In this document: positions 10,664 to 42,720 of the stretch, one piece after another
How positions within the stretch are numbered: position 1 is the first letter of the stretch
Layout of the letters: every line of letters begins with the position of its first letter
Assembly (NCBI GenBank): GCA_965232105.1
Contig: OZ246956.1
Span: 3,781,588 to 3,845,587 of the forward strand
Direction of reading: 5' to 3'
Source of the DNA: Thermoanaerobaculia bacterium
Lineage (GTDB): Bacteria; Acidobacteriota; Thermoanaerobaculia; Multivoradales; Multivoraceae
DNA: 64,000 nt
Notes under the pieces: generated by a model
What the model saw: only the letters and a program-made list of their open reading frames with translations
What the model was told of the DNA's origin: nothing
Database searches by the model: none
Program-made: the position numbers and the translations under genes

Positions 10664-10667
10664 GGAA

Positions 10668-20870: not shown

Positions 20871-21791
20871 CTACGAGTAGGCGGCGAACAGCTCCTCGAA
20901 CGCCTTGATCTGGTTGCCGGCCGCCGACGACGGCACCAGGATCGGCGTGCCGATACCGGCGTCGAACCAGCGCTCGACCCCCTCGCGCACCTCCGCCGCG
21001 GTGCCGAACAGCGTGCAATCGGCCAGCCAGCGATCCGAGAGGAGGGCCGGAATGCGGTCCATCTCGCCCTGCTCGACGGCCTGCTCCACCGCCTCCATCT
21101 CCTCGACGTAGCCGGCTGCCTTCCAGTAGTTGCGGTAGTTCGGCAGCAGGACGTAGCGGGACAGCGTCTTCCGGTTGCGCGCCGCCGCCAGGTCGCGGTC
21201 GTCGGAGATGACCGTCGGGATCATGTTGCCGACGAAGAAGTCGGGATCGGCGACCCTTCCCCCCGTTGCCGCCAGGGAATGCGCCATGTGGGAGCGGGCG
21301 CCATTCGCGAACACCATGCCGTCGCCGATCTCCGCGGCGGTGGCGATCATCCGGTCGCGCAGCGTGGCGAGAACGATCGGCGGCAGTTCGCCGGCGCCAC
21401 GCACCGCCTTCAGTTCGTCGACGAAGGCGCGGATGTCGCCCAGCGGCTTGCCGACGGTGACGCCCAGGCGCTTGTGAGCCGGCGCGTGCCCGACGCCGAC
21501 GCCGAACCGGAAGCGGCCCCGGGACACCTCGTGGATGAAGGACGCCGTGTGGGCGAACTCCGTCACGTGGCGGGTGTAGATGTTCACGATCGAGGTGCCG
21601 AAGTGGATGCGCTCGGTGCGCAGCGCGATCGCCTCGCAGAGCGCCAGACCGTCGCCCATGCTCGGACAGTAGATGCCGCTGAAGCCGCGGCCTTCGGTCT
21701 CCGCCGCCAGGTCGAGGGTCATCCGGCGGCGGCCGGCCACGGCGGCCAGCGAAATCGCAGGGGCGCGTTCGCTTGAGGGTGTCGTCGTCAT
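20871..21791 (-). CDS. LLM-class (luciferase-like) flavin/F420-dependent oxidoreductase
   Basis: 306 aa TIM-barrel LLM pattern. F420 dependence is an inference from the F420 operon downstream. Confidence 0.7.
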   Translation of the reverse strand: MTTTPSSERAPAISLAAVAGRRRMTLDLAAETEGRGFSGIYCPSMGDGLALCEAIALRTERIHFGTSIVNIYTRHVTEFAHTASFIHEVSRGRFRFGVGVGHAPAHKRLGVTVGKPLGDIRAFVDELKAVRGAGELPPIVLATLRDRMIATAAEIGDGMVFANGARSHMAHSLAATGGRVADPDFFVGNMIPTVISDDRDLAAARNRKTLSRYVLLPNYRNYWKAAGYVEEMEAVEQAVEQGEMDRIPALLSDRWLADCTLFGTAAEVREGVERWFDAGIGTPILVPSSAAGNQIKAFEELFAAYS

Positions 21792-23216: not shown

Positions 23217-23471
23217 ATGGCTCTCAACATCAGGAACGCAGAAGCAGAGCGCCTGGCCACCGAACTGGTGCGCCTGACGGGGCAAACCAAGACCGACGCA
23301 GTCACGGAGGCCCTTCGTGAGCATCTGGAACGGCGTCGCCGAGAACAGTCCGGTCGAACGCTGGCAGGCGAACTCAACGAGATCGGTCTTCGGTGCGCGA
23401 AGCTGCCGGTACGAGACGGGCGGTCCGCAGACGAGATCCTCGGGTACGACGAGAACGGCCTTCCCCGCTGA
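23217..23471 (+). CDS. vapB: Type II antitoxin VapB (FitA/ribbon-helix-helix-like)
   Basis: MALNIRNAEAERLATEL..., 84 aa. Stop overlaps the vapC ATG by 1 nt (TGATG). Confidence 0.65.
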   Translation: MALNIRNAEAERLATELVRLTGQTKTDAVTEALREHLERRRREQSGRTLAGELNEIGLRCAKLPVRDGRSADEILGYDENGLPR

Positions 23472-23872
23472 TGGTCATCGATACGTCGGCGCTGATTGCG
23501 ATTCTGCAGGACGAACCGGAACGCGTCTCATTCAGCGAGGAGATCGCGGCTGCGGCCGTGTGCCGGACATCGGCGGCCACTTTCTTCGAGGCGTCGATGG
23601 TCCTCGAAGCGCGTCACGGGGCCGAAGGCGTTCGGTTGCTCGACCTGTTGCTCGAATCGGCGAGCGTTGAGGTGGTTGCCGTCGACTTCACTCAGGCCAG
23701 GATCGCGCGCCAGGCGTTCGCCAACTTCGGGAAAGGGCGGCACCCGGCCCGACTCAACTACGGCGACTGCTTTTCCTATGCACTCTCCCGTCATCTCGGG
23801 GAGCCGCTGCTCTGCAAGGGCAACGACTTCTCGCGGACGGATCTCCCGCTGGTCCCGACCCCAGGCCGCTGA
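23471..23872 (+). CDS. vapC: PIN-domain toxin VapC
   Basis: MVIDTSALIAILQDEPE... carries the first catalytic Asp. 133 aa. Confidence 0.8.
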   Translation: MVIDTSALIAILQDEPERVSFSEEIAAAAVCRTSAATFFEASMVLEARHGAEGVRLLDLLLESASVEVVAVDFTQARIARQAFANFGKGRHPARLNYGDCFSYALSRHLGEPLLCKGNDFSRTDLPLVPTPGR

Positions 23873-25430: not shown

Positions 25431-25817
25431 CTAGACCTTGCGGATCGGTCCGGGGTAGCGGGCCACAACCTTGTCGGCTGTAAGCAGCGTCAGGCCCTCC
25501 ACCTGAGCCTGCGCGACAAGCAGGCGGTCGAACGGATCACGGTGGATCGGTGGCAGCAGATCCACTGCCGCCGCATGAACGCCGGTCACCGGCAGTTCCG
25601 TGTAGCCGACCTCGAGCAGACCCCGGCGAAGCACCCGGGGGTCCAGCGGAAAGTCCCGGCGCCGCAGCCCGTGCTTGATCGCGACCTCCCAGATCGATGC
25701 CGCGCTGAAGATGAGCTCCGACTCCGGTTCCTGGAGCAACCGCCGCACCTCAAGCGGCAGCACGGGCGAGTCGACGGCCGACCAAACCAGGAGGTGGGTA
25801 TCGAGGAGCAACGTCAC
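25431..25817 (-). CDS. vapC: PIN-domain toxin VapC
   Basis: MTLLLDTHLLVW... with conserved Asp. 128 aa. 4-nt overlap with the upstream antitoxin. Confidence 0.8.
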   Translation of the reverse strand: MTLLLDTHLLVWSAVDSPVLPLEVRRLLQEPESELIFSAASIWEVAIKHGLRRRDFPLDPRVLRRGLLEVGYTELPVTGVHAAAVDLLPPIHRDPFDRLLVAQAQVEGLTLLTADKVVARYPGPIRKV

Positions 25818-26056
25818 TCGTCGCCGTGGAAGAGCTTCTCGATCTCCTCCGCCGCCATCCGATCGAAGTCATCCGGGATCGCCATCTCGCCCTTGATGAA
25901 GCCGATCCGGCTCTTGCGAAGCCCCGGTCGGTCCACCGGGACGACCTTGGCCACCGGCTTTCCGGCACGCGCGATGATGAAGGGATCTCCGTCGACGACT
26001 TCGCGCAAGAGGCGGGAGAGATGAGTCTTTGCTTGATGGATGTTGACGACTCGCAT
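25814..26056 (-). CDS. Phd/YefM-family antitoxin
   Basis: MRVVNIHQAKTHLSRLLREVVDGDPFIIARAGKPVAKVVPVD matches the Phd/YefM pattern. 80 aa. Confidence 0.7.
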   Translation of the reverse strand: MRVVNIHQAKTHLSRLLREVVDGDPFIIARAGKPVAKVVPVDRPGLRKSRIGFIKGEMAIPDDFDRMAAEEIEKLFHGDE

Positions 26057-26244: not shown

Positions 26245-26949
26245 ATGTCAGACCATCAACCAGTCCACAACTCACTGCCCACTCTCGCCATGCTCGGCGC
26301 CACCGGCGACCTCGGCGGCGGCCTCGCCCGGCGCTGGGCGGCGGCCGGCTACTCGATCGTCATCGGCTCGCGCTCACGGGAAAAGGGCGCCGGCTCGGCC
26401 GAGGACGTGAACGAGCAGCTTCGCGCCCAGGGCCTGGCCCCCTCGGTCCGCGGCACGGACAACCTGAGCGCCGCCGAGGAAGGCGACCTCGTCGTGCTGA
26501 CCGTGCCCTACGCCTTCCAGCGCGGCACGCTGGAGGCCGTGCGCGACGCGCTTCAGGGCAAGATCCTGGTCGACTGCACCGTGCCGCTCGTCCCGCCGAA
26601 GGTCGCGCGGGTCCAGCTTCCCGACGAGGGCTGCGCCGCGGTCATCGCCCAGCAGGCCGTCGGCCCGGACGTGCGGGTCGTCTCCGCCTTCCAGAACGTC
26701 GGCGCCGCCCATCTGCGCGAGGACGACGCAGTGGACTGCGACGTACTGGTAACCGGTGACGACCCGGCGGCACGCGCCGAGGTCATCGAGCTGATCGAGG
26801 CGCTCGGGATGCGAGGCTGGCACGCCGGGCCGCTCGATAACGCCGCCGCGGCCGAGGCCCTGACATCGATCCTCATCCAGTTGAACCGGAAGTACGGCAT
26901 TGCCGGCGCGGGGATCCGGATCACCGGCGAGGTGACCCGGCAGGCCTGA
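26245..26949 (+). CDS. npdG: F420-dependent NADP oxidoreductase Fno/NpdG
   Basis: LAMLGATGDLGGGLARRWAAAGYSIVIGSRS matches the NpdG N-terminus (IAxLGGTGDxG...GSR). Start chosen at ATG 26245. Confidence 0.8.
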   Translation: MSDHQPVHNSLPTLAMLGATGDLGGGLARRWAAAGYSIVIGSRSREKGAGSAEDVNEQLRAQGLAPSVRGTDNLSAAEEGDLVVLTVPYAFQRGTLEAVRDALQGKILVDCTVPLVPPKVARVQLPDEGCAAVIAQQAVGPDVRVVSAFQNVGAAHLREDDAVDCDVLVTGDDPAARAEVIELIEALGMRGWHAGPLDNAAAAEALTSILIQLNRKYGIAGAGIRITGEVTRQA

Positions 26950-27073
26950 GGTCGTCCGCCTCGGCATCGTCAGGTGCGACCCGCTTACCGGCCGGCTATC
27001 CGCACGGTGCGGCGGCGACCGTCGCCGCGTGGCGGGTAGCCTTCCGTCTCCAAAGCTTCCTTCCCGCTCGATA

Positions 27074-27835
27074 ATGCTGAATCTCAAGTCGGTACCCGGC
27101 CTGCCCGACATCCAACCGGGCGACGATCTGGCCTCCCTGATCGCGGAAGCGATGCGTCAGGCGCGCCTGAAGTTGCGCGCCGGCGATGTACTCGTCGTCG
27201 CGCAGAAGATCGTCTCCAAAGCGGAGGGCCGAATCGTCGAACTGGCGACTGTCGAACCCCGTGCGGAAGCCGTGCGGCTGGCGGCGGAGTGCGACAAGGA
27301 TCCGCGGCTGGTCGAACTCGTGCTCCGGGAATCGACCGAAGTGCTCCGCACCGTGCCGGGAGTCATCATCGTCGAGCATCGGCTCGGTCTCGTGCTGGCG
27401 AACGCGGGGATCGACCAGTCGAACCTGCGGCCCGGCGACGACCACGGCTACGCCCTGCTCCTGCCGGAGGATCCGGACGCGTCGGCGGCGGCCCTGCGTG
27501 AAGCGCTCGCGGCCCGTTTCGGAATCGAGGACGTCGGCGTGATCATCAACGACAGCGTCGGCCGGGCCTGGCGTCTCGGCACCGTCGGGCTGGCGATCGG
27601 CGTCGCCGGCATGACCGCCCTGTGGGACCTGCGCGGCGACCGCGACCTGTTCGGTCGCGAACTCATGGTGTCTGAGACCGGCATCGCCGACCAGGTGGCG
27701 AGCGCCGCCCAGATCGTCCAGGGCGAGGGCAGCGAAGGAGCGCCCGTGGTCCGCGTCCGCGGTTTGAAGAAACTCGGGCCGGCCCAGACCGCCCGGGGCC
27801 TGCTGCGGCCCCGCAACCAGGACCTGTTCCGATGA
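27074..27835 (+). CDS. cofE: Coenzyme F420-0:L-glutamate ligase CofE (single-domain, no FbiB C-terminal nitroreductase-like domain)
   Basis: CofE-typical N-terminus (VPGLPDIQPGDDLASLIAE...). Only ~253 aa, and the next gene starts immediately, so no C-terminal extension exists. Confidence 0.75.
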   Translation: MLNLKSVPGLPDIQPGDDLASLIAEAMRQARLKLRAGDVLVVAQKIVSKAEGRIVELATVEPRAEAVRLAAECDKDPRLVELVLRESTEVLRTVPGVIIVEHRLGLVLANAGIDQSNLRPGDDHGYALLLPEDPDASAAALREALAARFGIEDVGVIINDSVGRAWRLGTVGLAIGVAGMTALWDLRGDRDLFGRELMVSETGIADQVASAAQIVQGEGSEGAPVVRVRGLKKLGPAQTARGLLRPRNQDLFR

Positions 27836-28812
27836 GCGAAGCCGCGGGCCGCTGTCTCGCGCTGTCCGGCGGTGTCGGCGGCGCCAAGCTGGCACTCGGG
27901 CTGTCTCGGGTGCTGCCGCCTGAAGCACTGACGATCGTCTGCAACACGGCGGACGACTTCGATCATCTCGGGCTCCGCGTCTGCCCCGATCTCGACACGG
28001 TGATGTACACGCTGGCCGGTGTCTCCAACCGCGTCACCGGATGGGGTCAGGCGCACGAAACGTGGTCCTTCCTCGAGGCGCTTTCCCAACTCGGCGGCGA
28101 GACCTGGTTCCGGCTCGGCGACCGGGATCTGGCGACGCACGTCGAGCGCACGCGGAGGCTCCGGAAGGGCGAGAGCCTGACCACGGTGACGGACGCGCTG
28201 TGCCGGGCACTCGGCGTCGAAGCGACCGTGCTGCCGATGAGCGACGACCCGGTGCGCACCGTCGTCGGCACGTCCGGCGGTGAACTGAGCTTCCAGCACT
28301 ACTTCGTGCGCGACCAGTGCGCCCCGGCGGTGACGGGCTTCCGGTTCGAGGGCGTCGATGCCGCGCGGCCGGCGCCGGACTTCCTCGCCGCCCTGGAAGA
28401 CGACGCGACGGCGGCGATCGTCGTCTGCCCCTCGAACCCGTTCGTCAGCGTGGATCCCGTGCTCGCCCTACCGGGAGTCGAGGCGGCGCTGCGGAGCACG
28501 CGGGCGCCCGTCATCGCGGTTTCCCCCATCGTCGGCGGCCAGGCCATCAAGGGTCCGGCGGCCAAGATGATGGTGGAACTGCAGATGCCCGTGACAGCCG
28601 CGGCCGTGGCCCGCCACTACCGGGAGCGCCACCTCCTCGATGGCTTCGTCGTCGACCATGCGGACGCCGGCGAAGCGGCGGAGATCGAGCGGGAGGGCCT
28701 GCCGACCCTGGTCACCGGCACGGTGATGGAGAGCCTGGCCGACCGGGAGCGTCTGGCGCGCGCGGTGCTCGACTTCGCTCGTAGCATCGCCGTACCGGAT
28801 CGCCGAACGTGA
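27832..28812 (+). CDS. cofD: 2-phospho-L-lactate transferase CofD
   Basis: LSGGVGGAKLALGL CofD signature. 326 aa. ATGA overlap with cofE. Confidence 0.85.
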   Translation: MSEAAGRCLALSGGVGGAKLALGLSRVLPPEALTIVCNTADDFDHLGLRVCPDLDTVMYTLAGVSNRVTGWGQAHETWSFLEALSQLGGETWFRLGDRDLATHVERTRRLRKGESLTTVTDALCRALGVEATVLPMSDDPVRTVVGTSGGELSFQHYFVRDQCAPAVTGFRFEGVDAARPAPDFLAALEDDATAAIVVCPSNPFVSVDPVLALPGVEAALRSTRAPVIAVSPIVGGQAIKGPAAKMMVELQMPVTAAAVARHYRERHLLDGFVVDHADAGEAAEIEREGLPTLVTGTVMESLADRERLARAVLDFARSIAVPDRRT

Positions 28813-29507
28813 GTGCGGGCGGTCTCTGGGCGGTCCTGCCGGTCAAGGCCTGGTCCGAGGCCAAGCGACGCCTGTCGCCGATCCTGAGCGGCGAAGAACG
28901 GCAGGAGCTGGCCCGCGCGATGCTGGACGACGTGCTCGGCGCGATCGCGGGCGCCTCACGGATCGCCGGAACACTTGCGGTCACCGCGGACAGGGTTGCT
29001 GCGAGCTACCTGGAAGGGGCCGGATGCGAGGTCCTGGCGGAGCCCAGGCGCGGCCTGAACCGGGCACTGGGCACCGCCGCGGACGAGCTGCGGCGCCGCG
29101 ACGCCTCGACGATGCTGGTGTTGCCCATCGACCTGCCGCTTGTCGTGGCCGACGATCTCGACCGGCTCTGCGGCCACCACCTGGAACAGGGGACCGGGCA
29201 AACCCGGAGCCCGGCTGGCCGGGCGACCGTCACCGTGGCGCCTGACCGATTCCGCTCCGGCACCAACGCCCTCGTCTGCTCGCCGCCTGGCTGCATTCCG
29301 TTCCGCTTCGGCGACGGCAGTTTCCATGCCCATCTCCGGGAAGCGGAACGGGCACAGGCCGCCCACGCGAGCGTCACCCTCAGGAACCTCAGCCTCGACG
29401 TTGACCATCCGGACGACCTGGCCGAACTGCTGCGGCTCAACCACGCCAGCCGCACCGGACGTCTTCTACGCCGACTCGGTGCTCCGTCACGGCTCGAAGG
29501 CCACTGA
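28809..29507 (+). CDS. cofC: CofC (2-phospho-L-lactate / phosphoenolpyruvate guanylyltransferase family)
   Basis: WAVLPVKAWSEAKRRLSP N-terminus typical of CofC/MobA-like nucleotidyltransferases. 232 aa. Overlaps the cofD stop. Confidence 0.75.
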   Translation: MSAGGLWAVLPVKAWSEAKRRLSPILSGEERQELARAMLDDVLGAIAGASRIAGTLAVTADRVAASYLEGAGCEVLAEPRRGLNRALGTAADELRRRDASTMLVLPIDLPLVVADDLDRLCGHHLEQGTGQTRSPAGRATVTVAPDRFRSGTNALVCSPPGCIPFRFGDGSFHAHLREAERAQAAHASVTLRNLSLDVDHPDDLAELLRLNHASRTGRLLRRLGAPSRLEGH

Positions 29508-29566
29508 ACCGGGACTGATACCGTTCGCTATCCGCCGTTGGCGCGTTCTTTCCCGCCGTCATAGCC

Positions 29567-32101
29567 ATGCCGCATCAGCTCAGCGCGTTCCTGGACCGTC
29601 GCCCGACCCCCGACGAAGCCCGTGCGCTTGCCCGCATCGAGCCAGGCGCCGGCCTCGACGAGTTGGTCGATGTCGCCGGTGAACTGCGTGACCGGGGCCA
29701 CGGCAACCTCGTCTCCTACTCGCGCAAGGTCTTCCTGCCGCTGACTCACCTGTGCCGGGACATCTGTCACTACTGCGTCTTCGCCCAGCCGCCGAAGAAG
29801 GGCGAGGCGGCGTACATGCCGCTGGACACGGTCCTGAGCCAGGCGCGCCTGGCCGCCCAGGCCGGCTGCAAAGAGGCGCTCTTCACCCTCGGGGACAAGC
29901 CTGAGCTGCGCTACAAGGCGGCCCGCGAGGGCCTGGCCGAGCTCGGCCACGAGTCGACCCTCTCCTACCTCCGCGAGGCCGCGGAACGGGTGTTTACCGA
30001 GACCGGGCTCCTGCCCCACCTCAACCCGGGCCTGATGACGGCGGAGGACATCGAGCGTCTGCGGCCCGTATCGCCGTCGATGGGCATCATGCTGGAGAGC
30101 GTGTCCATGCGGCTGCACGAGAAGGGCCAGGCCCACTACGGCTGCCCCGACAAGGTGCCGCACCGCAGGCTGGAGACCCTCCGGCTGGCCGGCGAGGCGC
30201 GGGTGCCCTTCACCTCGGGGATCCTGATCGGCATCGGCGAGACCCGCGAGGAACGGATCGACGCCCTGCTCGCGATGCGCGACCTGCACGACGAGTACGG
30301 CCACATCCAGGAAGTCATCGTCCAGAACTTCCGGGCCAAGCCCGAGACCCGGATGGCCGACGCGCCCGAGCCGACACTCGCGGACCTGCTGTGGACGATC
30401 GCCGCGGCGCGCCTCGTGCTCGGACCCGGGATGCACATCCAGGCGCCGCCCAACCTGAGCCCCGGCGTCCTGCCGCAGCTCATAGCGGCCGGCATCGACG
30501 ACTGGGGCGGCGTCTCGCCGGTCACTCCGGACTTCGTCAACCCCGAGGCCCCCTGGCCGCACCTCGAACGCCTGGCCGAGGAGACGGCCGCCGCCGGCAA
30601 GACCCTGGTCGAGCGTCTGACGGTCTATCCCGAGTGGGCGCTCGACGGGGAACGCTGGCTCGACGACGGCCGCGGCCAGAGCCGCGACATTCGCCGCCTG
30701 GGAGGCGTCCGCGCCGCGGTGCTGCAGCGGATCGACGCCACCGGGCTGCCGCGCACGGACGAGTGGTCGCCCGGCGAACAGACGCCGCCGCCACGCGCCG
30801 TCCTGGACGCGGTCACGGCGCCGGTCGCCCGAAACGGCAACGGCAGTGGCCACAGCGCCGTCGACGCGGTCTCAGCGCCTGTCCAGGCCATCCTCGATCG
30901 GGGCCGCTCGGGCTCGGATCTGACCGAGGAGCAGATCGCCACCCTGTTCCGCGCCCGCGGCGCCGACTTCACCGCCGTCTGTTCCGCTGCCGACGCGATC
31001 CGCCGCGAGGTGAACGGCGACACGGTGAGCTACGTCGTCAACCGGAACATCAACTACACGAACGTCTGCTACTTCAAGTGCCAGTTCTGCGCCTTCTCGA
31101 AGGGCAAGCTGAGCGAGAACCTGCGCGGCAAGCCCTACGACCTCGAACTGGAAGAGGTCATGCGCCGCACGGTCGAGGCCTGGCAGCGCGGCGCGACGGA
31201 AGTCTGCATGCAGGGCGGCATCCACCCGGACTACACGGGCGAGACGTATCTCGGAATCTGCCGCGCGGTGAAGGAGGCCGTGCCCGAAATCCACGTCCAC
31301 GCCTTCTCGCCGCTCGAGGTCTGGCAGGGCGCCGCGACCCTCGACATGCCGCTCCGCGACTACCTGCTGCTCCTCAAGGAGGCCGGCCTGGGCACCCTGC
31401 CCGGCACCGCCGCCGAGATCCTCGACGACGAGATTCGCGCAATCATCTGCCCCGACAAGCTGAACACGGACCAGTGGCTCGAGGTGATGGAGACCGCCCA
31501 CGGGGTCGGCTACCGCACGACGGCGACGATCATGTACGGCCACGTCGACGGCCCGCGAAACTGGGCCCGCCACCTGCTACGCCTGCGCGACCTGCAGAAG
31601 CGCACCCGCGGCTTCACCGAGTTCGTGCCCCTTCCCTTCGTCCACATGGAGGCGCCGCTCTACCTCAAGGGCCGCGCCCGCAAGGGGCCGACCTTCCGCG
31701 AGGCCGTGCTGATGCACGCGGTGGCCCGGCTGGCGCTCCACCCCTGGTTCGAAAACGTCCAGGCCTCCTGGGTCAAGATGGGGCCGGAAGGCGTCGCGGC
31801 CTGCCTCAACGCCGGCGTGAACGACCTCGGCGGCACGTTGATGAACGAGAGCATCACCCGCGCCGCCGGTTCCGAGCATGGCCAGGAACTGTCACCGTCC
31901 GAGATGGAGGCGCTGATCCAAAGCGCCGGCCGCGTTCCGAGACAGCGCACGACGCCCTATGGCACGCCGCCGCCGGAACGGGTCGAGACGTCCTTCCAGG
32001 CCGCGGAACTGGCCGCCGTGCTGAACACGCCGGCCCACCGCTATGAGCGCACTGGCCCCTTGCGACTGGTGCGCCCGGGCCTGGAAGCGGACGGCAGCTA
32101 A
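29567..32101 (+). CDS. fbiC: FO synthase FbiC (fused CofG+CofH, two radical-SAM domains)
   Basis: Two CxxxCxxC radical-SAM motifs (CRDICHYCVF; CYFKCQFCAF) in two homologous halves. 844 aa. Confidence 0.9.
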   Translation: MPHQLSAFLDRRPTPDEARALARIEPGAGLDELVDVAGELRDRGHGNLVSYSRKVFLPLTHLCRDICHYCVFAQPPKKGEAAYMPLDTVLSQARLAAQAGCKEALFTLGDKPELRYKAAREGLAELGHESTLSYLREAAERVFTETGLLPHLNPGLMTAEDIERLRPVSPSMGIMLESVSMRLHEKGQAHYGCPDKVPHRRLETLRLAGEARVPFTSGILIGIGETREERIDALLAMRDLHDEYGHIQEVIVQNFRAKPETRMADAPEPTLADLLWTIAAARLVLGPGMHIQAPPNLSPGVLPQLIAAGIDDWGGVSPVTPDFVNPEAPWPHLERLAEETAAAGKTLVERLTVYPEWALDGERWLDDGRGQSRDIRRLGGVRAAVLQRIDATGLPRTDEWSPGEQTPPPRAVLDAVTAPVARNGNGSGHSAVDAVSAPVQAILDRGRSGSDLTEEQIATLFRARGADFTAVCSAADAIRREVNGDTVSYVVNRNINYTNVCYFKCQFCAFSKGKLSENLRGKPYDLELEEVMRRTVEAWQRGATEVCMQGGIHPDYTGETYLGICRAVKEAVPEIHVHAFSPLEVWQGAATLDMPLRDYLLLLKEAGLGTLPGTAAEILDDEIRAIICPDKLNTDQWLEVMETAHGVGYRTTATIMYGHVDGPRNWARHLLRLRDLQKRTRGFTEFVPLPFVHMEAPLYLKGRARKGPTFREAVLMHAVARLALHPWFENVQASWVKMGPEGVAACLNAGVNDLGGTLMNESITRAAGSEHGQELSPSEMEALIQSAGRVPRQRTTPYGTPPPERVETSFQAAELAAVLNTPAHRYERTGPLRLVRPGLEADGS

Positions 32102-32278: not shown

Positions 32279-32557
32279 ATGGAACTCGCGATCACCAAGG
32301 CCAAGGCCCGCCTCTCCGAACTTGTCGCCGCCGCGCAAGACGGCGAGCGCGTCGTCATCACGAAGAACGGCGAACCCGCCGTCGAGCTGGTTCGTTGCAA
32401 GCAGCGTAAGCGCAAGGGCGGCTTCGACTTCGACAAGTGGGAAGCCACCCGGCGCCGGATGGGGATCAAGGACGCGCCGCCGGAAGAGGCCAAGGCGATG
32501 CGCGAAGCGTTCCACGACGCAGCGCTGAGCCGGCGGGTCCTCGGCCTCGACGACTAG
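32279..32557 (+). CDS. Phd/YefM-family antitoxin
   Basis: MELAITKAKARLSELVAAAQDGERVVITKNGEPAVELV. AGGAGG Shine-Dalgarno 8 nt upstream. Confidence 0.7.
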   Translation: MELAITKAKARLSELVAAAQDGERVVITKNGEPAVELVRCKQRKRKGGFDFDKWEATRRRMGIKDAPPEEAKAMREAFHDAALSRRVLGLDD

Positions 32558-32983
32558 CTCCGGCCGTTCGACGATTCGGAAGCGCCGAAGCGCATCCTGC
32601 TGGACGCGTCCTACATCTACAGGCTGATGGAGTTGTACGGGCGATTCCCGGAAGATGCCCGTGCCTTGATTGAGGAGAACGACGCGGAACTCTACGTGAG
32701 CGCGGTGTCCATCTGGGAGATGCGCCTGAAGTACCGCGCTCTTCATCCCTCGGGCGATCGCAAGAGCCCCCACAACCCCAGCGATGTCCTCAAAACACTG
32801 GAGGGCCACGACGTCACGTTCCTGCCAATCGATGCCCATCACGCGGCCCGCGATCTGAACGTGCCGCTCGGGCACAAGGATCCGTTCGATGAGTTATTGC
32901 TCGTTCAGGCCCAGGAAGAGAGGCTCAGATTCCTGACGGCGGACCGGCAGCTCGACGGACATCCCCTGGCCATCACCGTGTAG
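32558..32983 (+). CDS. PIN-domain (VapC-like) toxin. Coding continues in the same frame directly after the antitoxin TAG, with no ATG/GTG/TTG before the catalytic N-terminal Asp (possible pseudogene, non-canonical start or readthrough).
   Basis: In-frame region ...KRILLDASYIYRLMELYG... contains the PIN N-terminal LLDxS Asp. The first ATG (32627) lies downstream of it. The C-terminal region is also PIN-like (VSAVSIWEM..., HKDPFDELLLVQA..., FLTADRQL). Confidence 0.5.
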   Translation, partial: LRPFDDSEAPKRILLDASYIYRLMELYGRFPEDARALIEENDAELYVSAVSIWEMRLKYRALHPSGDRKSPHNPSDVLKTLEGHDVTFLPIDAHHAARDLNVPLGHKDPFDELLLVQAQEERLRFLTADRQLDGHPLAITV

Positions 32984-33436
32984 CTAGCTGTTGGATCGAG
33001 GGATGGTCGCTGAAGCCACAACTGCTGGGCGTTCCGTGCTACACCTTGCCTCCAACGCCGCCAGGAGCTCGTCGTCGCGGAGGAACGCGTAGGACTGCGG
33101 CGGGTGAAACGCCGGTGTCTCGCTCCGCGCGCAGAGAGGCACCTCAAGTTCGGTTATCTCGGTCAGAGTCAGCGCGGCTACGAGTGCGGCATCTCCGACG
33201 TAGGCGTCAAACTCCCAGCGGTCGATGCCGACTCGGTCGCCGAACGCATGCCAGATTTCGTCTGGCGCTTCCAGGGCCACTCCTTGAAGCCGGGCGAATG
33301 CCACCACCTGCCGGCGCGGACTCGTTGCGTAGATCCAGATTCTTGCTCCGGCGGGCGCTCGGACTGCTCGTTTGCGGATCTCGACCGTCTTGCAACCCGA
33401 GATGAGCATGTCGACGTACGGCGGCTTAACCGACAT
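32984..33436 (-). CDS. ASCH-domain (PUA-like fold) protein
   Basis: MSVKPPYVDMLISGCKTVEIRKR matches the ASCH N-terminal GxKT.E.R motif. ~150 aa beta-barrel-sized. Start is 12 nt downstream of the 752-aa gene's stop. Confidence 0.65.
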   Translation of the reverse strand: MSVKPPYVDMLISGCKTVEIRKRAVRAPAGARIWIYATSPRRQVVAFARLQGVALEAPDEIWHAFGDRVGIDRWEFDAYVGDAALVAALTLTEITELEVPLCARSETPAFHPPQSYAFLRDDELLAALEARCSTERPAVVASATIPRSNS

Positions 33437-33447
33437 GAGGATGTCGG

Positions 33448-35706
33448 TCACGAGTCCACTTCTCCGAATCCCGCCGACACGATCCTCAGGAGTTGGTCGT
33501 GTGAAATCGCTTCCGCCGCGACGTAGTTCGCGGGACCGACGCAATCGAGCGTCTTGAGTTCGCTGTAGGAGACTGGCCGGGGGATGCCCGTCAGGCAGTC
33601 GAAGGTGAACGCCGTTACTCGACCTTCAGCGTCGGCGCGGGCTTCGATGTCGGCGGACGTCAGGACACCTTGGCGGCTGAGTGTTGCGACGGCCTCCTCC
33701 TTCGAGAGTGTGGCGGAGAAGGTCGCGCGAGCCACAGCAGCCACTTCCATCCTCGGCTCACTGAGATAGAAGACAACGATCGTCCCGCGTGGTAGGAGCC
33801 CGTGCCGGCCGGCCCGAAAGAAGTAGGCCCGTTCAAGCCGGAGAGCTGCCTCCCGGCCCGGCAGCAGCGACGACTGTGTGACTGTGGGTGGCAGGAGCTG
33901 CTCCGCATAGCTTGGCCGAACCGGCACCACCACGCTCGTGCGGCCGACGGGGAGTAGAAGGCCCGGAGAGATGAGAGTCTCGAAGTCGAAGAGAGGGATG
34001 CGATTCTCGACGGCCTCTGCTTGCCTGATCTCGATGCCCTTGTCGCTTGCTTCGCTCCAGGCGGGCATAGTCGGTGCCAACCGAAGCCCGGTTTGCTCCC
34101 TGAAGTCAGCGGAGAAACTCCGCCAACCGTCTGGCAGCAAGAAGCCGCCGTAGACCAGCTTCGAGAGTGTCGCGCTCGGCCCGCCATTGCCTGTTCGTAC
34201 CCGACGAAAGCCGCAATCGAGCGCGACCTGTTTCGTCGTGAACTTCCCAGCTGCGGAATGGAGGTCAATTCGATAGAGCTTGCCAAAGCTACGGGGCCTT
34301 AGTAGCCAATCGAACAGATGCTCGGCCGTAACCAGCGACTCGGCGCGCGATTCCTCAACGTACACATGGGCAGTCCACGGCTGGCCGAGGATGGTCGGAG
34401 GTGCCAACGCGGCGACCCCGAGGATCCGGTCGGCTGCCCTAACCACGCGCTGTTCGGTGGGTTGCTGGGTCGTGCCCGGATTCAGGACGGCATCCCTGCG
34501 GTCAGCCGGTAGGCCGAGGCGTTCAAGGAAGTTCGCTAGGGCTGCGCGATCGCTGTCCTTCAGCGGACCTCCAGACAGGAGGCTATGGTCGACCTCGGCG
34601 GTGACCCGTGAAGCGCCGTGTCCGGCTGCGGTGGGGAGCGGCGGAGCCAGATCCGCCGGTGCGGCGACCCTGAGGCCGTATTGATCCCGTAGTAGTTCGG
34701 CGTGCGAAAGGATCCGACCGTCTCGCGAGACAAAGCCGTAGGCGCGATGGTAGATGCAGGCTGCGAGATGGCGTAGGTCGGAAGTGTCCGTGATGCCACG
34801 CTTGCTGGTGACATCGGAGGTCAGCCCCATCGAGTCTCGCAGTGCGCTCGTCAGCCGAGCAACCTGGTCTACCGGGGGCTCTGGAAGGCGGGGGAGACTG
34901 CGGGCTGCTTGCAGGAACTCGTCGTTCGGTTCGACGGACGTCCTCTCCAACTCACGTATCAGTTCAGCGGTGACGACGATGGGGACTGCTCCAAGCAGCC
35001 ACAACGATTGCCCCCGGTCGCGCTGCCTCAGGGCGTCGAACACGACATTCAAGTCGAGCACCCAGCGACGTGCCGGAAGTCGTGGCCTGTCGCGGAACGT
35101 GATCGCCTCGGCGGCGGGCGGTGGGCTTTCGTCCCGCGGCGACGGCTTGCGGAAGAGCGACGGAACATCGAGTTCCCTAAGGTAGACGTTGATCTCCCGG
35201 TTGGTCGTCCTGCCGCCGAGTTCCGTGCGGTGGAGCGCAAAGCCGTGGCGCACCCAGAACTGGTTCGCCGGGAGATCTGCGGCCACGCGGGCCGTGATGC
35301 CGAGGACGGAGTGCTGTTCGCCGTAGCGCACAAGCTCGTTGAGCAGCCCTCCCGCCACACCTTGTCGTCGTGCGGTTTCAAGCGTGAAGATCTGAAACAC
35401 CTTCAACTGCTGGTGAGTGCCTCCGAAGCGGAGGAATCCGGCCACTTCCCCACTGCTCGGCCGAGTCGCGACCCAGAGCCGACGCCTGCGCGCTGACTGC
35501 CGATAGACCGCTGGCGTGAAGAACCCGAGTTCCCTCGTGTGGACGTCGGCCGTGGCGACTATCTGGTCGACGTAGGGGAGTACGTCGCTCGGCTGCTTGA
35601 GAATCGTGATTCGGGTCAAACGGGTTTCTCGCATGTGGTCAGGGAATCCTCCTGGGTAAACGCGACGTTGCGCACCGAGTCCTTCATGGACCAAGACGGA
35701 TTCCAT
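33448..35706 (-). CDS. Large multidomain protein with N-terminal GNAT acetyltransferase domain and uncharacterised middle/C-terminal regions. Likely true start is ATG 35635 (MRETRLTRIT).
   Basis: GNAT motif A (RRQGVAGGLLNELVRYGEQHSVLGITARV...NQFWVRHGF). Middle segment has PIN-like strings (RWVLDLNVVFDAL...VTAELIREL). AGGAGG lies ~12 nt upstream of ATG 35635. Confidence 0.55.
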   Translation of the reverse strand: MESVLVHEGLGAQRRVYPGGFPDHMRETRLTRITILKQPSDVLPYVDQIVATADVHTRELGFFTPAVYRQSARRRRLWVATRPSSGEVAGFLRFGGTHQQLKVFQIFTLETARRQGVAGGLLNELVRYGEQHSVLGITARVAADLPANQFWVRHGFALHRTELGGRTTNREINVYLRELDVPSLFRKPSPRDESPPPAAEAITFRDRPRLPARRWVLDLNVVFDALRQRDRGQSLWLLGAVPIVVTAELIRELERTSVEPNDEFLQAARSLPRLPEPPVDQVARLTSALRDSMGLTSDVTSKRGITDTSDLRHLAACIYHRAYGFVSRDGRILSHAELLRDQYGLRVAAPADLAPPLPTAAGHGASRVTAEVDHSLLSGGPLKDSDRAALANFLERLGLPADRRDAVLNPGTTQQPTEQRVVRAADRILGVAALAPPTILGQPWTAHVYVEESRAESLVTAEHLFDWLLRPRSFGKLYRIDLHSAAGKFTTKQVALDCGFRRVRTGNGGPSATLSKLVYGGFLLPDGWRSFSADFREQTGLRLAPTMPAWSEASDKGIEIRQAEAVENRIPLFDFETLISPGLLLPVGRTSVVVPVRPSYAEQLLPPTVTQSSLLPGREAALRLERAYFFRAGRHGLLPRGTIVVFYLSEPRMEVAAVARATFSATLSKEEAVATLSRQGVLTSADIEARADAEGRVTAFTFDCLTGIPRPVSYSELKTLDCVGPANYVAAEAISHDQLLRIVSAGFGEVDS

Positions 35707-35847
35707 CTGACAATCTTATGCCTATGTTGCTATGGCCTCTCTGAGAGAGCGAGCGGACGAACCTTGACGAGCCGCAACTGCCCCATTTCTCGGCCCGACT
35801 CGCTCCAAGTGGAGCTCGAGGAGGCGAACCAGAACCGCGCTGGGCAC

Positions 35848-38670
35848 CTACCGCCTCGGAGGTAGCCGCCTCCGAGGCCGTTTCCTAGTTCCGCGAACCG
35901 CCTCGACTGAGATCGGCGCCTGCATCCGTTCGTAGAGTCCGAGAAGGTGTTCCAGACGGTCACTCTCGCTCTTGAAGCGCTCAGGTCGATAGAGCCTGTC
36001 AACGGCCCGATCGAGGTTCTGATGGGCTCTCCTCAGAGCGGCGGGCATAAGGTCGGGGTCGTAGAGATCGGCCAGGGTCGCGTCCAAGTGTTCCGAACGA
36101 GCGTCGAGGACCGCCTGCGCCAGCGGACTCAGCCCCGACCTCCCTGACTCTGCCGGTTCGGAGAAACCCGCCGGGGTCGGAAAGGTGTTGTAGACGACGC
36201 CGACGGAGTACATGTAGTCGCTCTTCATCCGTCCCGTGACAGTTCGCACCCACGCCATGTGCATGGCGGACGTCAGTAAAGCGAACTCCGGCAGAGTCGC
36301 CTCCGGCAGGATCCGGAGCTTCTGATTCGCCACGACCTCAGGCGTAAGCCAGCCGATTGGAATGTAATGTCGTCGCTCCGAGCTCGTGTTGGGCAACACC
36401 AGGAACGGCTCCGCGAGCCTGTGGTCGACGCCAACCTGGGTCGGAAAGCTCGCCATCCTCACCGTGCTCTCCCGCGAACGGGACGCTCGATAGCGCCTCA
36501 CCGCGGCCACCCGCTCCGCCACCTGCGGAAGCCGCCGGAGTTCGGTCGGTGACGCGTCCGCCAAGTACAGAATCCACCGATGAAAGCCGTTGATGTACTC
36601 GTCGCCTCCGATATAGCGCCGAAAGAACTTCGCCGCGCCGGGTTCATGGGCGAGAAACTCCTCGCGTTCATCTCCGGTGAAGGTCAGGAGTCCGTTGTCG
36701 ATCATCTGAACACCGGTCTTGAGGCGACGAAGCCCGTTGATGGGGTGGCTGACCTTTCTGACCGTCAGATGTGGGTCCGTCATTCTGGTGGCGTCGAACA
36801 GATACGGCGAGAGAGCCCGACAACGCTGCTCGTCGGGCTCGCCATTCACGTCCGCGTAGCTGAACAGGCGCTTGACCGGACGCTCGTCCTGGCGCCGGTC
36901 AACACCCACGATCACGACATGCACATGGGCCTTCCCACGGGCGTCCGACCCCCAGGCAAAGGTCCGATGCGCGAAGGCAAGGTCAAGGTCATACCTGTCG
37001 AAGAGAACTGGCCACAGGAGGCCGACCTGCTCGCCCTGCGTCACGGAGTTGGTCGCAACAAGGCCGATGCGGACAGGCTTGCCAGCTTGGCTGACGTAAG
37101 CTCCTGCCTTGATGAACCAGGCGGCCACGTAGTCAAGAGTGCCCCCTTGCTTGCCGAGTTGGGCGACTCGGCGCACTTGGGCGGCCTGCTCCTTGCTCTG
37201 CTGACTCTTACCCCGAAACGGCGGATTGCCGAAGACATAGTCGCAGTTCCCGGGTGGCAGGACATCAGCCCAGTCCATCTCCAACGCATCCCCGTGCACG
37301 ATGTCCGGGGTCGTCCGAAGCGGAATCCGCGTGTAGGTTGCACCGAACTCCAGGCTCAGGCGGTTGTTCATCATGTGGTCCATCATCCACAGCGCGGTCT
37401 CTGCGATGCGGGCGGGGAACTCCCCCAGCTCGATGCCGTGGAACTGGTCGACATCGATCATCGACATCCGATCGGCAAGGCTCTCCAGCACGGGCCCCGT
37501 ATACAGTTCCTTCAGCACCTCGAGTTCGAGAACGCGAAGCTCCCGGTAGGCGATGATCAGGAAATTGCCGCAGCCGCAGGCCGGGTCGAAGAAGGTCACT
37601 TCGCCGAGGCGTCTCTGGAACCTCAACAGCTCGGCCCGGCGCCGGCCGTCCTTGCGGGCCTGAAGCCGTTTGAATTCGGCCCGAAGATCGTCGAGAAACA
37701 ACGGCTCGATCACCTTCAGGATGTTCTTCTCGGTCGTGTAGTGCGCCCCTTGCGCGCGCCGCTCCGCGGGTGCCATGACGGACTGGAACAGGGCACCGAA
37801 GATCGCGGGCGAGATCGTAGACCAGTCGAAGCTGCACGCATCAAGGACGGCCCTGCGCATCAAGGCGTCGAAGGACGGGATCGTCAGAGGCCCGTCGAAC
37901 AGGTCGCCGTTGACGTAAGGGAAACGGGCGAGATCCTCGTCCAACGTCGCCTGACGGGTCTCCGCAGGAGTGTTCAGAACCTGAAACAACTGCGACAGCC
38001 AAAGTCCGAAGTCCGCACCGTCCTCGCCGGTTCGACTCTCGAGAAGGTCGAAAAGGATGTCGCGAGGCTCGAAGATGCCCGTATCGTCCGCGAAAAGACA
38101 GAACACGAGCCGGACCAGGAAGCGCTCCAGATCAGGCCCAGCGTAGCCGGCTGCCGCGAGGGCGTCGTGGACCTTGCCAACCAGTTCGGCCGCCTCGATG
38201 TTCGCCGGGTCCTGGTCGCGAAACACCCGGCGCTCGACGCCAAGAATGAAGCCGAAGCTCTCGACATTCTCCGGCAGGTCCTGGAGAGCGAAGCTGGTGA
38301 CCGCCCGCTCTCCAAGATCGTGTAGTTCGAAGGTCTGGAAGTCGCTGACCAGGATGTACCGGGGTCGCTCCCGGTCCGCAAGAGCATCCGAGTACTCTCC
38401 CGCCTGACCGTACGCTTTGTCTAGATCGCGCCCGGCGCTCTTCTGCTCCACGATGAGCACGCCAGGCCAGAAGAGGTCGATGAAGCCGCTCCTGTCGTCC
38501 AGCTTCCGAACGTGTTCCTCGTAGCGCGCGACCGTGCGGCGACGGACCCCGAAGACTTCGAAGAACTCGTTGTAGAAGCTATGCGTCTCTCCCTTCTCGT
38601 ACTCCGCGTCCCGCCATTCCTTGGCGAACGCCGCGGCGCGAACCCTTACCTCGTTCCAGGAGAGACGCAC
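35848..38670 (-). CDS. MmeI-family type IIL restriction-modification enzyme (fused PD-ExK endonuclease + N6-adenine methyltransferase + target-recognition domain)
   Basis: N-terminus LSWNEVRVRAAAFAKEWRDAE...FIDLFWPGVLIVEQKS carries the D-x-E-x-K nuclease motif. MTase motif I FFDPACGCGNFLI and motif IV FGNPPFRGKS. C-terminal TRD contains the family-typical ...MKSDYMYSVGVVYNTFP. The ORF-track first ~105 aa are an Ala/Ser/Arg-rich frame artefact, so a GTG start at 38670 is proposed. Confidence 0.8.
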   Translation of the reverse strand: MRLSWNEVRVRAAAFAKEWRDAEYEKGETHSFYNEFFEVFGVRRRTVARYEEHVRKLDDRSGFIDLFWPGVLIVEQKSAGRDLDKAYGQAGEYSDALADRERPRYILVSDFQTFELHDLGERAVTSFALQDLPENVESFGFILGVERRVFRDQDPANIEAAELVGKVHDALAAAGYAGPDLERFLVRLVFCLFADDTGIFEPRDILFDLLESRTGEDGADFGLWLSQLFQVLNTPAETRQATLDEDLARFPYVNGDLFDGPLTIPSFDALMRRAVLDACSFDWSTISPAIFGALFQSVMAPAERRAQGAHYTTEKNILKVIEPLFLDDLRAEFKRLQARKDGRRRAELLRFQRRLGEVTFFDPACGCGNFLIIAYRELRVLELEVLKELYTGPVLESLADRMSMIDVDQFHGIELGEFPARIAETALWMMDHMMNNRLSLEFGATYTRIPLRTTPDIVHGDALEMDWADVLPPGNCDYVFGNPPFRGKSQQSKEQAAQVRRVAQLGKQGGTLDYVAAWFIKAGAYVSQAGKPVRIGLVATNSVTQGEQVGLLWPVLFDRYDLDLAFAHRTFAWGSDARGKAHVHVVIVGVDRRQDERPVKRLFSYADVNGEPDEQRCRALSPYLFDATRMTDPHLTVRKVSHPINGLRRLKTGVQMIDNGLLTFTGDEREEFLAHEPGAAKFFRRYIGGDEYINGFHRWILYLADASPTELRRLPQVAERVAAVRRYRASRSRESTVRMASFPTQVGVDHRLAEPFLVLPNTSSERRHYIPIGWLTPEVVANQKLRILPEATLPEFALLTSAMHMAWVRTVTGRMKSDYMYSVGVVYNTFPTPAGFSEPAESGRSGLSPLAQAVLDARSEHLDATLADLYDPDLMPAALRRAHQNLDRAVDRLYRPERFKSESDRLEHLLGLYERMQAPISVEAVRGTRKRPRRRLPPRR

Positions 38671-38677
38671 TTCCGAC

Positions 38678-39718
38678 CTACAGCACCGCCTCCGCGATCG
38701 CGTCGAGCGCCTCCGGCTGCTGGCAGCCCAACAGCATCGAAGCGACCTGGCCGTTGCGGCCGGCTTCCTTCCAGGCCGCGAGACGGTCGACGATCCGCTC
38801 CTTCGGGCCGACCAGGGCGAGATCGTCGACCAGGGCATCCGGCACGGCGCCGATGGCCTCGCTTTTCTTGCCGCCGAGGAAGTTGTCCTGGATGACCTTG
38901 GCCGCGTCAGGGTAGCCGAGGCGCCTGGCGTAGTCGTTGTAGAAGTTCTTGTCGCGCGCGCCCATGCCGCCGATGTACAGGGCAAGATTCATCTTGACCG
39001 GAGTGCGGCACTGTTCCACGTCGTCGCCCATCACGACGGTGACGAAGGGCATGACCTTGAAGTCGTCCAGGCTCTTGCCGCCGCCGGCCTTGGCGAAGCC
39101 CCGTCCCAGCGCATCTTCGAACAGATCGAAGCGCTCCGGGTTCATCCACACCGGGAACACGCCGTCAGCGACCTCGGCACTGCACTCGACGCCCTTCGGG
39201 CTGATCGACGCGGTGTAGATCGGGATCGATGTGTCGGCGGCGAGAATGCTCCGGAGCGGCTTGCCGAGACCCGTCCCGTCATCGCCGCGGTACGGCAATT
39301 GGTAGTGATAGCCGTCGTAGGTCGCGGGCTCCTCGCGAGCGAAGATCTGACGCACGATGTCGATGTACTCCTTCGTGCGCGTCAGCGGCCGGCCATAGGC
39401 GACGCCGTGCCAGCCCTCGATCACCTGCGGTCCTGACGGCCCCAGGCCAAGCAGGAAGCGGCCCCCGGAGAGCTGATTCAGGGTCAAGGCGGTCATCGCG
39501 GTCATCGCCGGGCTGCGCGCCGGCATCTGCATGATCGCGGTGCCGACCTTGATCTTCTCGGTCTGAGCGAGGATCCACGCCGCGGGCGTCACCGCGTCGT
39601 TGCCGTAGGCCTCGGCCGTCCAAACCGAAGTAAAGCCGGCGCTCTCCGCCTGCCGGATGCGGTCGATCGGAATGTTGATCTGGCTGCCGAAGCCGCCCGA
39701 GAGCAGTCCTAGTTCCAT
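38678..39718 (-). CDS. LLM-class F420-dependent oxidoreductase (luciferase-like monooxygenase family)
   Basis: 346 aa LLM TIM-barrel pattern (GFTSVWTAEAYG...; GRFLLGLGPSG...). Ends 8 nt upstream of the MmeI-like gene's proposed start. Confidence 0.7.
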   Translation of the reverse strand: MELGLLSGGFGSQINIPIDRIRQAESAGFTSVWTAEAYGNDAVTPAAWILAQTEKIKVGTAIMQMPARSPAMTAMTALTLNQLSGGRFLLGLGPSGPQVIEGWHGVAYGRPLTRTKEYIDIVRQIFAREEPATYDGYHYQLPYRGDDGTGLGKPLRSILAADTSIPIYTASISPKGVECSAEVADGVFPVWMNPERFDLFEDALGRGFAKAGGGKSLDDFKVMPFVTVVMGDDVEQCRTPVKMNLALYIGGMGARDKNFYNDYARRLGYPDAAKVIQDNFLGGKKSEAIGAVPDALVDDLALVGPKERIVDRLAAWKEAGRNGQVASMLLGCQQPEALDAIAEAVL

Positions 39719-41933: not shown

Positions 41934-42033
41934 CTGAACCGGACTCGACGGCCCGTCGTGGGTGGGCTGGCATACCAGCAGGACGAAGTCACGTCTCTTG
42001 GTTCCGACCCGGTTCTCGACGCATAATCAGCCG

Positions 42034-42714: not shown

Positions 42715-42720
42715 AGAACC

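Follow-up and report, generated by a model that had tools for sequence, protein, structure and literature searches.

A predicted F420 biosynthesis operon of a common Gram-negative type from the uncultured Acidobacteriota genus Candidatus Multivorans

We analyzed a stretch of 64,000 nucleotides from contig OZ246956.1 of a Thermoanaerobaculia bacterium (assembly GCA_965232105.1), referred to below as the window, and studied five adjacent genes at positions 26245 to 32101 of its forward strand that are predicted to encode biosynthesis and reduction of the cofactor F420. Gene identity was assessed by comparing the score of each open reading frame (ORF) with the curated cut-off of the respective NCBIfam equivalog model, with Pfam as a second line of evidence. 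Each of the five ORFs scored above its cut-off (Table 1), and the Pfam assignments agreed with NCBIfam for all of them. A complete F420 gene set including Fno, as proposed in an original prediction made from the same DNA, is thus present. The fused form of FbiC with two radical-SAM halves was recovered as well, since the CofG and CofH domain models TIGR03550 and TIGR03551 both scored above cut-off and both CxxxCxxC motifs were found, at residues 63 and 501. The closest solved structure of Fno was that of Thermobifida fusca (5N2I, 146 bits). The automatic gene call had placed the start of fno at 26290, but we favor the start at 26245, because the upstream start codon and an LPTLA peptide are conserved across the 13 genomes of the Candidatus Multivorans clade that we recovered, hereafter called congeners.

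The product of cofE matched the single-domain profile end to end and aligned over its full length with CofE of A. fulgidus (2G9I/2PHN, 164 bits). Of the two-domain FbiB model PRK13294 it covered just the N-terminal half (positions 12 to 243 of 449), and it contained PF01996 alone, as expected from the earlier claim that a CofE of this size cannot carry the C-terminal reductase domain of FbiB. With the second CofE equivalog model, PRK13293, it reached 255 bits, below the cut-off of 274 bits. We then read the gene junctions from the sequence. The stop codon of cofE and the start codon of cofD overlap in ATGA (27832-27835), and those of cofD and cofC overlap in GTGA (28809-28812). Tight coupling, which had been attributed to all five genes, therefore holds strictly only for cofE-cofD-cofC, since fno and cofE are separated by 124 nucleotides and cofC and fbiC by 59 nucleotides. 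A search for RNA elements in the intergenic gaps gave no Rfam match at the gathering score and no tRNA in the window, and promoter and terminator scans were not above the shuffled expectation.

Table 1. Position, strand and family evidence of features in the window and of a gene found beside the F420 cassette of other lineages (L numbers denote loci of relatives).
Feature	Position	Strand	Evidence or remark
fno/npdG, NADPH-dependent F420 reductase, 234 aa	26245-26949	+	TIGR01915, 202 bits (cut-off 150)
cofE, single-domain F420-0:gamma-glutamyl ligase, 253 aa, ATG start at 27074	27074-27835	+	TIGR01916, 274 bits (cut-off 181)
cofD, transferase joining the activated C3 acid to FO	27832-28812	+	TIGR01819, 306 bits (cut-off 257)
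cofC, guanylyltransferase activating the C3 acid, GTG start	28809-29507	+	TIGR03552, 152 bits (cut-off 105)
fbiC, fused CofG+CofH (CofGH) FO synthase, 844 aa	29567-32101	+	NF006687, 1150 bits (cut-off 1018)
Rv3520c-type luciferase-like oxidoreductase	38678-39718	-	TIGR03559, 388 bits (cut-off 335)
Second luciferase-like oxidoreductase	20871-21791	-	Best NCBIfam TIGR03620, 87 bits (cut-off 220)
274-aa membrane-anchored protein and PaaK-family adenylating ligase, 4-nt overlap	39808-41933	+	Divergent from the 38678-39718 gene
Strain-variable island, 6.4 kb, between fbiC and the 38678-39718 gene	32279-38670	not stranded	Pfam annotation
Toxin-antitoxin pairs, one VapBC-like and two Phd/PIN	23217-23872; 25431-26056; 32279-32983 (Phd/PIN)	+; -; +	
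PNPOx-like protein	L015 12448-12915 (+); L080 12615-13091; L036 1388-1846; L054 6276-6737		
PNPOx-like protein, further loci	L067 6322-6765; L069 6325-6777; L071 6321-6764		

In a further step, selection on the five genes was estimated from pairwise Nei-Gojobori ratios of nonsynonymous to synonymous substitution rates (dN/dS) between the window and five congeners. The ratios were 0.03 to 0.12 for fno, 0.09 to 0.17 for cofE, 0.14 to 0.19 for cofD, 0.19 to 0.24 for cofC and 0.10 to 0.14 for fbiC. Moreover, window CofC was aligned with 7P97, 6BWG, 2I5E and the CofC proteins of 65 related loci, and the catalytic and binding residues K20, K26, R28, D116, T147, N148, S165, D191 and D193 (M. rhizoxinica numbering, used throughout) were found to be conserved. 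With dN/dS between 0.03 and 0.24, all five genes are under purifying selection. As CofC has also kept its catalytic residues and FbiC its iron-sulfur motifs, the operon is very probably functional.

We then investigated the identity of the host. FbiC was 87 to 96% identical to its counterparts in 13 metagenome-assembled genomes (MAGs) named Acidobacteria or Acidobacteriota bacterium, Holophagales bacterium or Candidatus Multivorans, and NCBI taxonomy places the latter in Acidobacteriota; Thermoanaerobaculia; Candidatus Multivoradales. The operon and its flanks were syntenic in all 13 congeners over about 22 kb, with identities typically of 75 to 99%. The common order is MgtE, RidA, the first luciferase-like gene, CoA-transferase, GST, TerC, the five F420 genes, the second luciferase-like gene, the unknown 274-amino-acid protein and the PaaK-like ligase. 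The original prediction had suggested a Gammaproteobacteria-like host on the basis of an nfuA-like gene, Na+-NQR genes and an aryl-polyene cluster. All three are indeed present in the window. However, in clustering at 90% identity, NqrA, FbiC and CofD each fall together with a protein from one and the same 175,593-bp scaffold of the Acidobacteria MAG 277c_1 (PGAP names its orthologues CofGH and 2-phospho-L-lactate transferase), and therefore the Na+-NQR genes belong to the Acidobacteriota lineage too. FbiC identity, the taxonomy of the relatives, synteny and this shared scaffold together rule out a gammaproteobacterial host; the host is an uncultured member of the genus Candidatus Multivorans (Acidobacteriota, Thermoanaerobaculia). 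An identical FbiC protein is present on a near-identical ENA metagenome contig, from which the window differs by 6 single-nucleotide polymorphisms (SNPs) over 22.3 kb, with divergence after position 41866. Judged by isolate names, many relatives of the window genome appear to be sponge-associated; several of these names (COS, RHO and SB bins) are presumably those of marine-sponge MAG sets.

To place the operon among its relatives, FbiC was scanned against one genome per GTDB species, and the 80 best FbiC loci were compared, using loci of about 22 kb. A phylogeny of FbiC had been put forward with the original prediction as a check. In a neighbor-joining tree of these 80 best matches, calculated without support values, the Multivorans clade grouped with other Acidobacteriota (L015, L017, L062 and L080) and with one Gemmatimonadetes sequence, and this group was sister to a gammaproteobacterial clade. 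The tree and the fixed chromosomal context favor inheritance of the operon within Acidobacteriota over a recent transfer. A gammaproteobacterial-like host with a proteobacterial island acquired by recent transfer is highly improbable. Beyond Acidobacteriota and the Gemmatimonadetes MAG (70% identity), the nearest FbiC, Fno, CofE and CofD proteins are alpha- and gammaproteobacterial, with an unchanged gene order and 50 to 69% identity, and the operon is flanked by toxin-antitoxin genes and a restriction-modification island; both points would fit a transfer. These flanking genes, however, are strain-variable insertions and not the edges of the operon, which occupies the same context in 13 of 13 congeners. 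Its GC content (0.69 to 0.71) is close to that of the whole window (0.63 to 0.71), its FbiC clusters with other Acidobacteriota, and the host itself belongs to this phylum. The operon is in all likelihood part of the core genome of the Candidatus Multivorans lineage.

We next determined how common this layout is. Among the 80 best FbiC loci, the order fno-cofE-cofD-cofC-fbiC in the same orientation was found in 33 loci from outside Multivorans, which are alpha- and gammaproteobacterial MAGs by name; 27 of them are as compact as the window operon. Eight further loci contain cofE-cofD-cofC-fbiC, and fno was undetected there. A protein search with CofE, in which 8000 candidates were scored at E<=1e-10, showed that the 120 best homologues were single-domain proteins with PF01996 alone without exception, nearly all of 251 to 263 amino acids. 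Because the 33 proteobacterial MAG loci share the gene order and the 120 best CofE homologues are single-domain, the five-gene layout with a single-domain CofE is the Gram-negative norm and is not specifically archaeal. The view of CofE as an unusual, archaeal-style enzyme was thus abandoned. This is in line with previous work, in which fused FbiC was described in proteobacteria and F420 gene sets were noted in Acidobacteria genomes (PMC8498797). Biochemically, F420 has been confirmed in bacteria only for Actinobacteria, Chloroflexi and Proteobacteria (PMC8498797), and Paracoccus denitrificans and Oligotropha carboxidovorans have been reported as producers (Ney et al. 2017, cited in PMC8498797).

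FbiB's C-terminal domain, or a stand-alone FbiE, reduces dehydro-F420, and stand-alone FbiE homologues occur in several predicted producers (PMC8498797). We searched for such a reductase with phmmer --max, using the M. tuberculosis FbiB C-terminal domain (100% identical to PDB 4XOM) as the query against all six-frame ORFs of at least 70 amino acids from the window plus 83 loci, together 1.6 Mb. No homologue was detected at E<0.1 in the 64-kb window or in the neighboring DNA of any congener, so that none lies within 10 kb of fbiC in the 13 congeners, and the Pfam annotation of the window contains no nitroreductase domain. The original prediction had allowed for an FbiB C-domain homologue encoded apart from CofE; in the window and the congener DNA searched, there was none. 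Thus, within the window and the congener loci, no reductase is fused to CofE or linked to the operon. The only significant match among the 83 loci was an ORF in L032 (E = 2e-9). This nitroreductase ORF reached 55 bits with the FbiB C-terminal model (cut-off 250 bits) and had a better match to BluB, and was therefore rejected as FbiE.

We also considered ORFs that lie between cofC and fbiC (L044, L050 and L055) or beside cofC-fbiC (L015 and L017) as the missing enzyme. They encode an antiporter, an AAA-ATPase/nuclease, a TonB receptor, a MaoC dehydratase, a molybdopterin oxidoreductase, a GST and a TPR protein, and no plausible reductase or kinase was found among the ORFs in or beside these split cassettes, apart from a PNPOx-like gene in L015. 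This gene encodes a 155-amino-acid protein that adjoins the F420 cassette in seven Acidobacteriota and Gammaproteobacteria loci (52 to 59% identity), after fbiC in two and before fno in five. It gave a weak, sub-threshold match to the F420-dependent PPOX family TIGR03618, and neither the window nor the Multivorans loci contain it. The protein might depend on F420 for its activity, or might be considered as the dehydro-F420 reductase that is missing.

The identity of the three-carbon acid activated by CofC was then addressed. The original prediction had proposed that CofC uses 2-phospho-L-lactate (2-PL) or 3-phosphoglycerate (3-PG) rather than phosphoenolpyruvate (PEP), or that a separate reductase exists. 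The same question, namely how the side chain becomes saturated in Gram-negative producers, had already been framed in the literature (PMC8498797, PMC8764529, bioRxiv 10.1101/670455), and of the proposed alternatives it is the 3-PG branch that is disfavored by our data. Mutagenesis and a crystal structure identified Ser or Thr at CofC position 162 as diagnostic for 3-PG acceptance, with contributions from Met91, Cys95 and His145 (Hasan et al., PMC8764529). In the M. rhizoxinica enzyme, S162 was crucial for activation of 3-PG and only S162T kept most of it, and M91L and C95L reduced activation (PMC8764529). At positions 91, 95, 145 and 162, the window CofC and those of all 13 congeners have Leu, Leu, Ser and Gly, and thus differ at all four from the 3-PG enzymes (Met, Cys, His and Ser). 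M. tuberculosis FbiD, a PEP user, has the same states, Gly162 and Leu91, as the window enzyme. These residues indicate a CofC of the 2-PL/PEP type, the predicted C3 acid being 2-phospholactate or PEP and not 3-PG. A 3-PG route leading to 3PG-F420 as in Mycetohabitans is therefore very unlikely, although 3PG-F420 is presumed to have arisen in just such a context, with a single-domain CofE and no linked reductase (PMC8764529), and the best PDB match of CofC was a 3-PG enzyme (7P97, 83 bits), a match that reflects overall bacterial relatedness and not active-site identity.

With PEP, CofC and CofD would produce dehydro-F420-0, which an unlinked FbiE-like enzyme of the nitroreductase superfamily or another flavoenzyme would reduce, as in Thermomicrobium; we give this reading slightly less than an even chance. 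PEP is ubiquitous, and no bacterial source of 2-phospholactate is known (10.1101/670455). The stand-alone FbiE homologues of predicted producers and the Gly162 shared with FbiD speak for PEP as well, and the cognate CofC and CofD of the sponge symbiont Candidatus Entotheonella were shifted towards it (PMC8764529). The results of the reductase search weigh on the other side: no FbiB C-terminal homologue turned up in the window or, in the congeners, at up to 10 kb from fbiC, and a single one of the 80 Gram-negative-type loci has a nearby nitroreductase ORF, the low-scoring one of L032. [quoted passage not shown] This preference was, however, possibly an artifact of the M. jannaschii CofD used, according to the authors (PMC8764529). 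Moreover, no enzyme forming 2-PL is known from any organism, the compound is not provided by E. coli (10.1101/670455), and nothing resembling a lactate kinase was seen in the conserved neighborhood. We regard the 2-PL route as rather doubtful. CofD scored slightly higher with the archaeal M. mazei CofD (3C3D, 206 bits) than with the mycobacterial M. smegmatis FbiA (6UVX, 188 bits), which is weak evidence for 2-PL and, likewise weakly, against PEP. We consider unreduced dehydro-F420 as the end product to be unlikely.

Position 162 of CofC showed a further state among the relatives. In most gammaproteobacterial relatives (about 30 Pseudomonadales-type loci, for example L023, L025, L033, L045 and L050), this residue is Asp. 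The characterized CofC enzymes have Gly, Ser or Thr there, and Asp162 is not among the mutagenesis results consulted (PMC8764529).

Taken together, the locus passes every sequence-level test for the Gram-negative cassette, namely five equivalog models and gene order, and it lacks an FbiB-type reductase fused to CofE, an FbiE-like gene near the operon and Ser or Thr at CofC position 162. We consider it highly likely that it represents a functional operon for F420 biosynthesis and reduction, of the common Gram-negative type, in an uncultured Acidobacteriota lineage. From family membership, the pathway would proceed as follows. FbiC would form the deazaflavin FO, with tyrosine and a riboflavin precursor as starting compounds, CofC would activate a three-carbon phospho-acid with GTP, and CofD would move the activated acid onto FO. 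The single-domain CofE would then add the gamma-glutamyl tail, and Fno would load a hydride from NADPH onto the cofactor. The reduced cofactor would be spent by the nearby Rv3520c-type luciferase-like enzyme, probably together with other enzymes encoded elsewhere in the genome.

Several points weigh against this interpretation. No member of the Acidobacteriota has ever been demonstrated to produce F420, and the alphaproteobacteria reported as F420 makers yield only trace amounts (PMC8498797). At the locus itself, no gene is assigned to the step that yields the saturated lactyl side chain. Substrate prediction from CofC residues is imperfect, since CofD also filters the intermediates (PMC8764529). 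Finally, the FbiC tree was built by neighbor joining from the 80 best matches only and has no support values. It is conceivable, although we rate it as less likely than not, that the Candidatus Multivorans genome and the wider Gram-negative cassette do without any FbiE- or FbiB-type reductase and reach the saturated side chain by an undescribed route. Possibilities for such a route are an unrelated dehydro-F420 reductase (luciferase-like or PNPOx-like), a bacterial source of 2-phospholactate or the use of dehydro-F420 as the working cofactor.

The predicted operon adds a well-supported, genus-wide case to Acidobacteriota, where the genes were noted but the cofactor was never demonstrated (PMC8498797). 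A limited literature search returned no paper on F420 in Thermoanaerobaculia or in sponge Acidobacteriota. In the sponge symbiont Candidatus Entotheonella, F420 is suspected to serve specialized metabolism (PMC8498797). Our analysis corrects the host to Acidobacteriota, and the residue comparison takes 3-PG, one of the substrate alternatives of the original prediction, away from the Candidatus Multivorans lineage. Moreover, the locus illustrates a recognized gap, the origin of the reduced side chain in Gram-negative producers whose CofE is single-domain. For experiments to close this gap, cultured proteobacteria that carry the cassette are the better choice.

We then examined the neighboring genes proposed as F420 users. 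Both luciferase-like oxidoreductases named in the original prediction are present, but they differ in support. The Rv3520c-type gene is the one that exceeds its NCBIfam cut-off, that of the F420-specific luciferase-like subfamily TIGR03559, and its closest solved structures are F420-dependent Mer enzymes. It is syntenic in 13 of 13 congeners, lies 1 to 2 kb downstream of fbiC where the intervening island is absent, and has homologues with 61 to 68% identity near fbiC in four other lineages (L015, L058, L062 and L080). Its product is thus the most credible candidate F420 user near the operon. For the second luciferase-like gene, the best NCBIfam families were all of the F420-type luciferase-like group and all below cut-off, and its eight PDB matches were all F420-dependent enzymes, though weak (E of about 1e-6). 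This gene was syntenic in 12 of 13 congeners; L008 has no close match, and the L016 locus ends before reaching it. F420 dependence of its product is possible.

The PaaK-like ligase (40629-41933) had been listed as a further F420 user because of its likeness to F390 synthetase. It scored 80 bits with the F390 synthetase model TIGR03335, against a cut-off of 459, and 212 bits with PaaK, against a cut-off of 700; the ligase is present, but we rejected it as an F390 synthetase. Its partner, the 274-amino-acid protein, matched no Pfam or NCBIfam family. The pair was syntenic in 12 of 13 congeners (the L016 locus ends too soon) and absent beside the homologues of the Rv3520c-type gene outside the genus, and is thus genus-specific. 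No evidence tying the pair to F420 was found.

The island between fbiC and the Rv3520c-type gene contains a Phd/PIN toxin-antitoxin pair, an ASCH gene, a 728-amino-acid GNAT-domain gene and an MmeI-family restriction-modification gene. Most of it was absent or different in most congeners, and its GC content is lower; it is not part of the F420 system. Each of the three toxin-antitoxin pairs around the operon was present in only some congeners, and the intergenic sites around the operon therefore look like insertion hot spots. A recent horizontal island bounded by toxin-antitoxin genes was considered and dismissed, since these and the restriction-modification genes vary by strain and the context of the operon is fixed. 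At 32984-35634 (-), a 155-amino-acid ASCH-domain gene is followed by the gene for the 728-amino-acid protein, in which only an N-terminal GNAT domain was recognized; both lie next to the MmeI-family gene and may form a defense or DNA-modification module. The MmeI-family gene (35848-38670, -) is intact in the window, with 940 amino acids. In the 99.97%-identical ENA contig, a SNP corresponding to window position 37999 turns Trp224 into a nonsense codon and thereby splits the gene.

Further features were observed in the remainder of the window. After the PaaK-like ligase, it carries a DuOB-domain gene and two DUF488 genes (41962-43802, +); these are absent from the near-identical ENA contig, where identity is lost after 41866 and a TRAP transporter (DctM) gene comes next. 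The aryl-polyene cluster includes an FAD-dependent halogenase-like gene (9113-10867, -), which may vary between strains, because about 1.3 kb is missing at this place from the same cluster in a related Logan contig (L083). Downstream of the Na+-NQR/ApbE genes there is a DDE transposase gene (61270-62703, +; DDE_Tnp_1_4, 504 bits). The AT skew reached 0.32 in a 2-kb bin at 44001-46000, which coincides with a fused TRAP transporter gene (43857-46247, -, DctM domain). A tandem repeat was not detected in this bin, and the skew likely stems from membrane-protein codon bias.

Finally, we compared the operon with known systems. With the Gram-negative cassette it shares fused FbiC, a single-domain CofE, separate CofC and CofD and a linked Fno as the supply of reductant. 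The gene order is identical in the 33 proteobacterial MAG loci, at 31 to 69% amino acid identity, and a luciferase-like oxidoreductase often adjoins. It differs in the phylum of its host, in its FbiC, which branches with other Acidobacteriota, and in Gly162 of CofC, in place of the Asp of most Pseudomonadales-type relatives. The actinobacterial pathway (FbiC, FbiD, FbiA and FbiB) has in common with it the fused FbiC, the predicted chemistry up to F420-0 or dehydro-F420-0 and, in M. tuberculosis FbiD, Gly162 and Leu91. In contrast, window CofE lacks the fused nitroreductase-type domain, and Fno rather than Fgd is linked. The Thermomicrobium variant is set apart by its stand-alone FbiE, for which the window and the neighboring DNA of the congeners contain no similar gene. 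The 3PG-F420 cluster of Mycetohabitans (Paraburkholderia) rhizoxinica resembles the window operon in belonging to a Gram-negative symbiont, in its single-domain CofE, in the lack of a dehydro-F420 reductase and in its CofC, the 3-PG enzyme 7P97 being the best PDB match of window CofC; however, the four specificity residues of window CofC are of the 2-PL/PEP type, and a glyceryl cofactor is not predicted. The archaeal pathway, based on 2-PL, likewise has a single-domain CofE, that of A. fulgidus matching window CofE with 164 bits, and the CofD marginally closest to ours, that of M. mazei. Unlike the split archaeal CofG and CofH, the FO synthase of the window is fused, the F420 genes lie in one operon with fno, and window CofE stays below the PRK13293 cut-off (255 against 274 bits).

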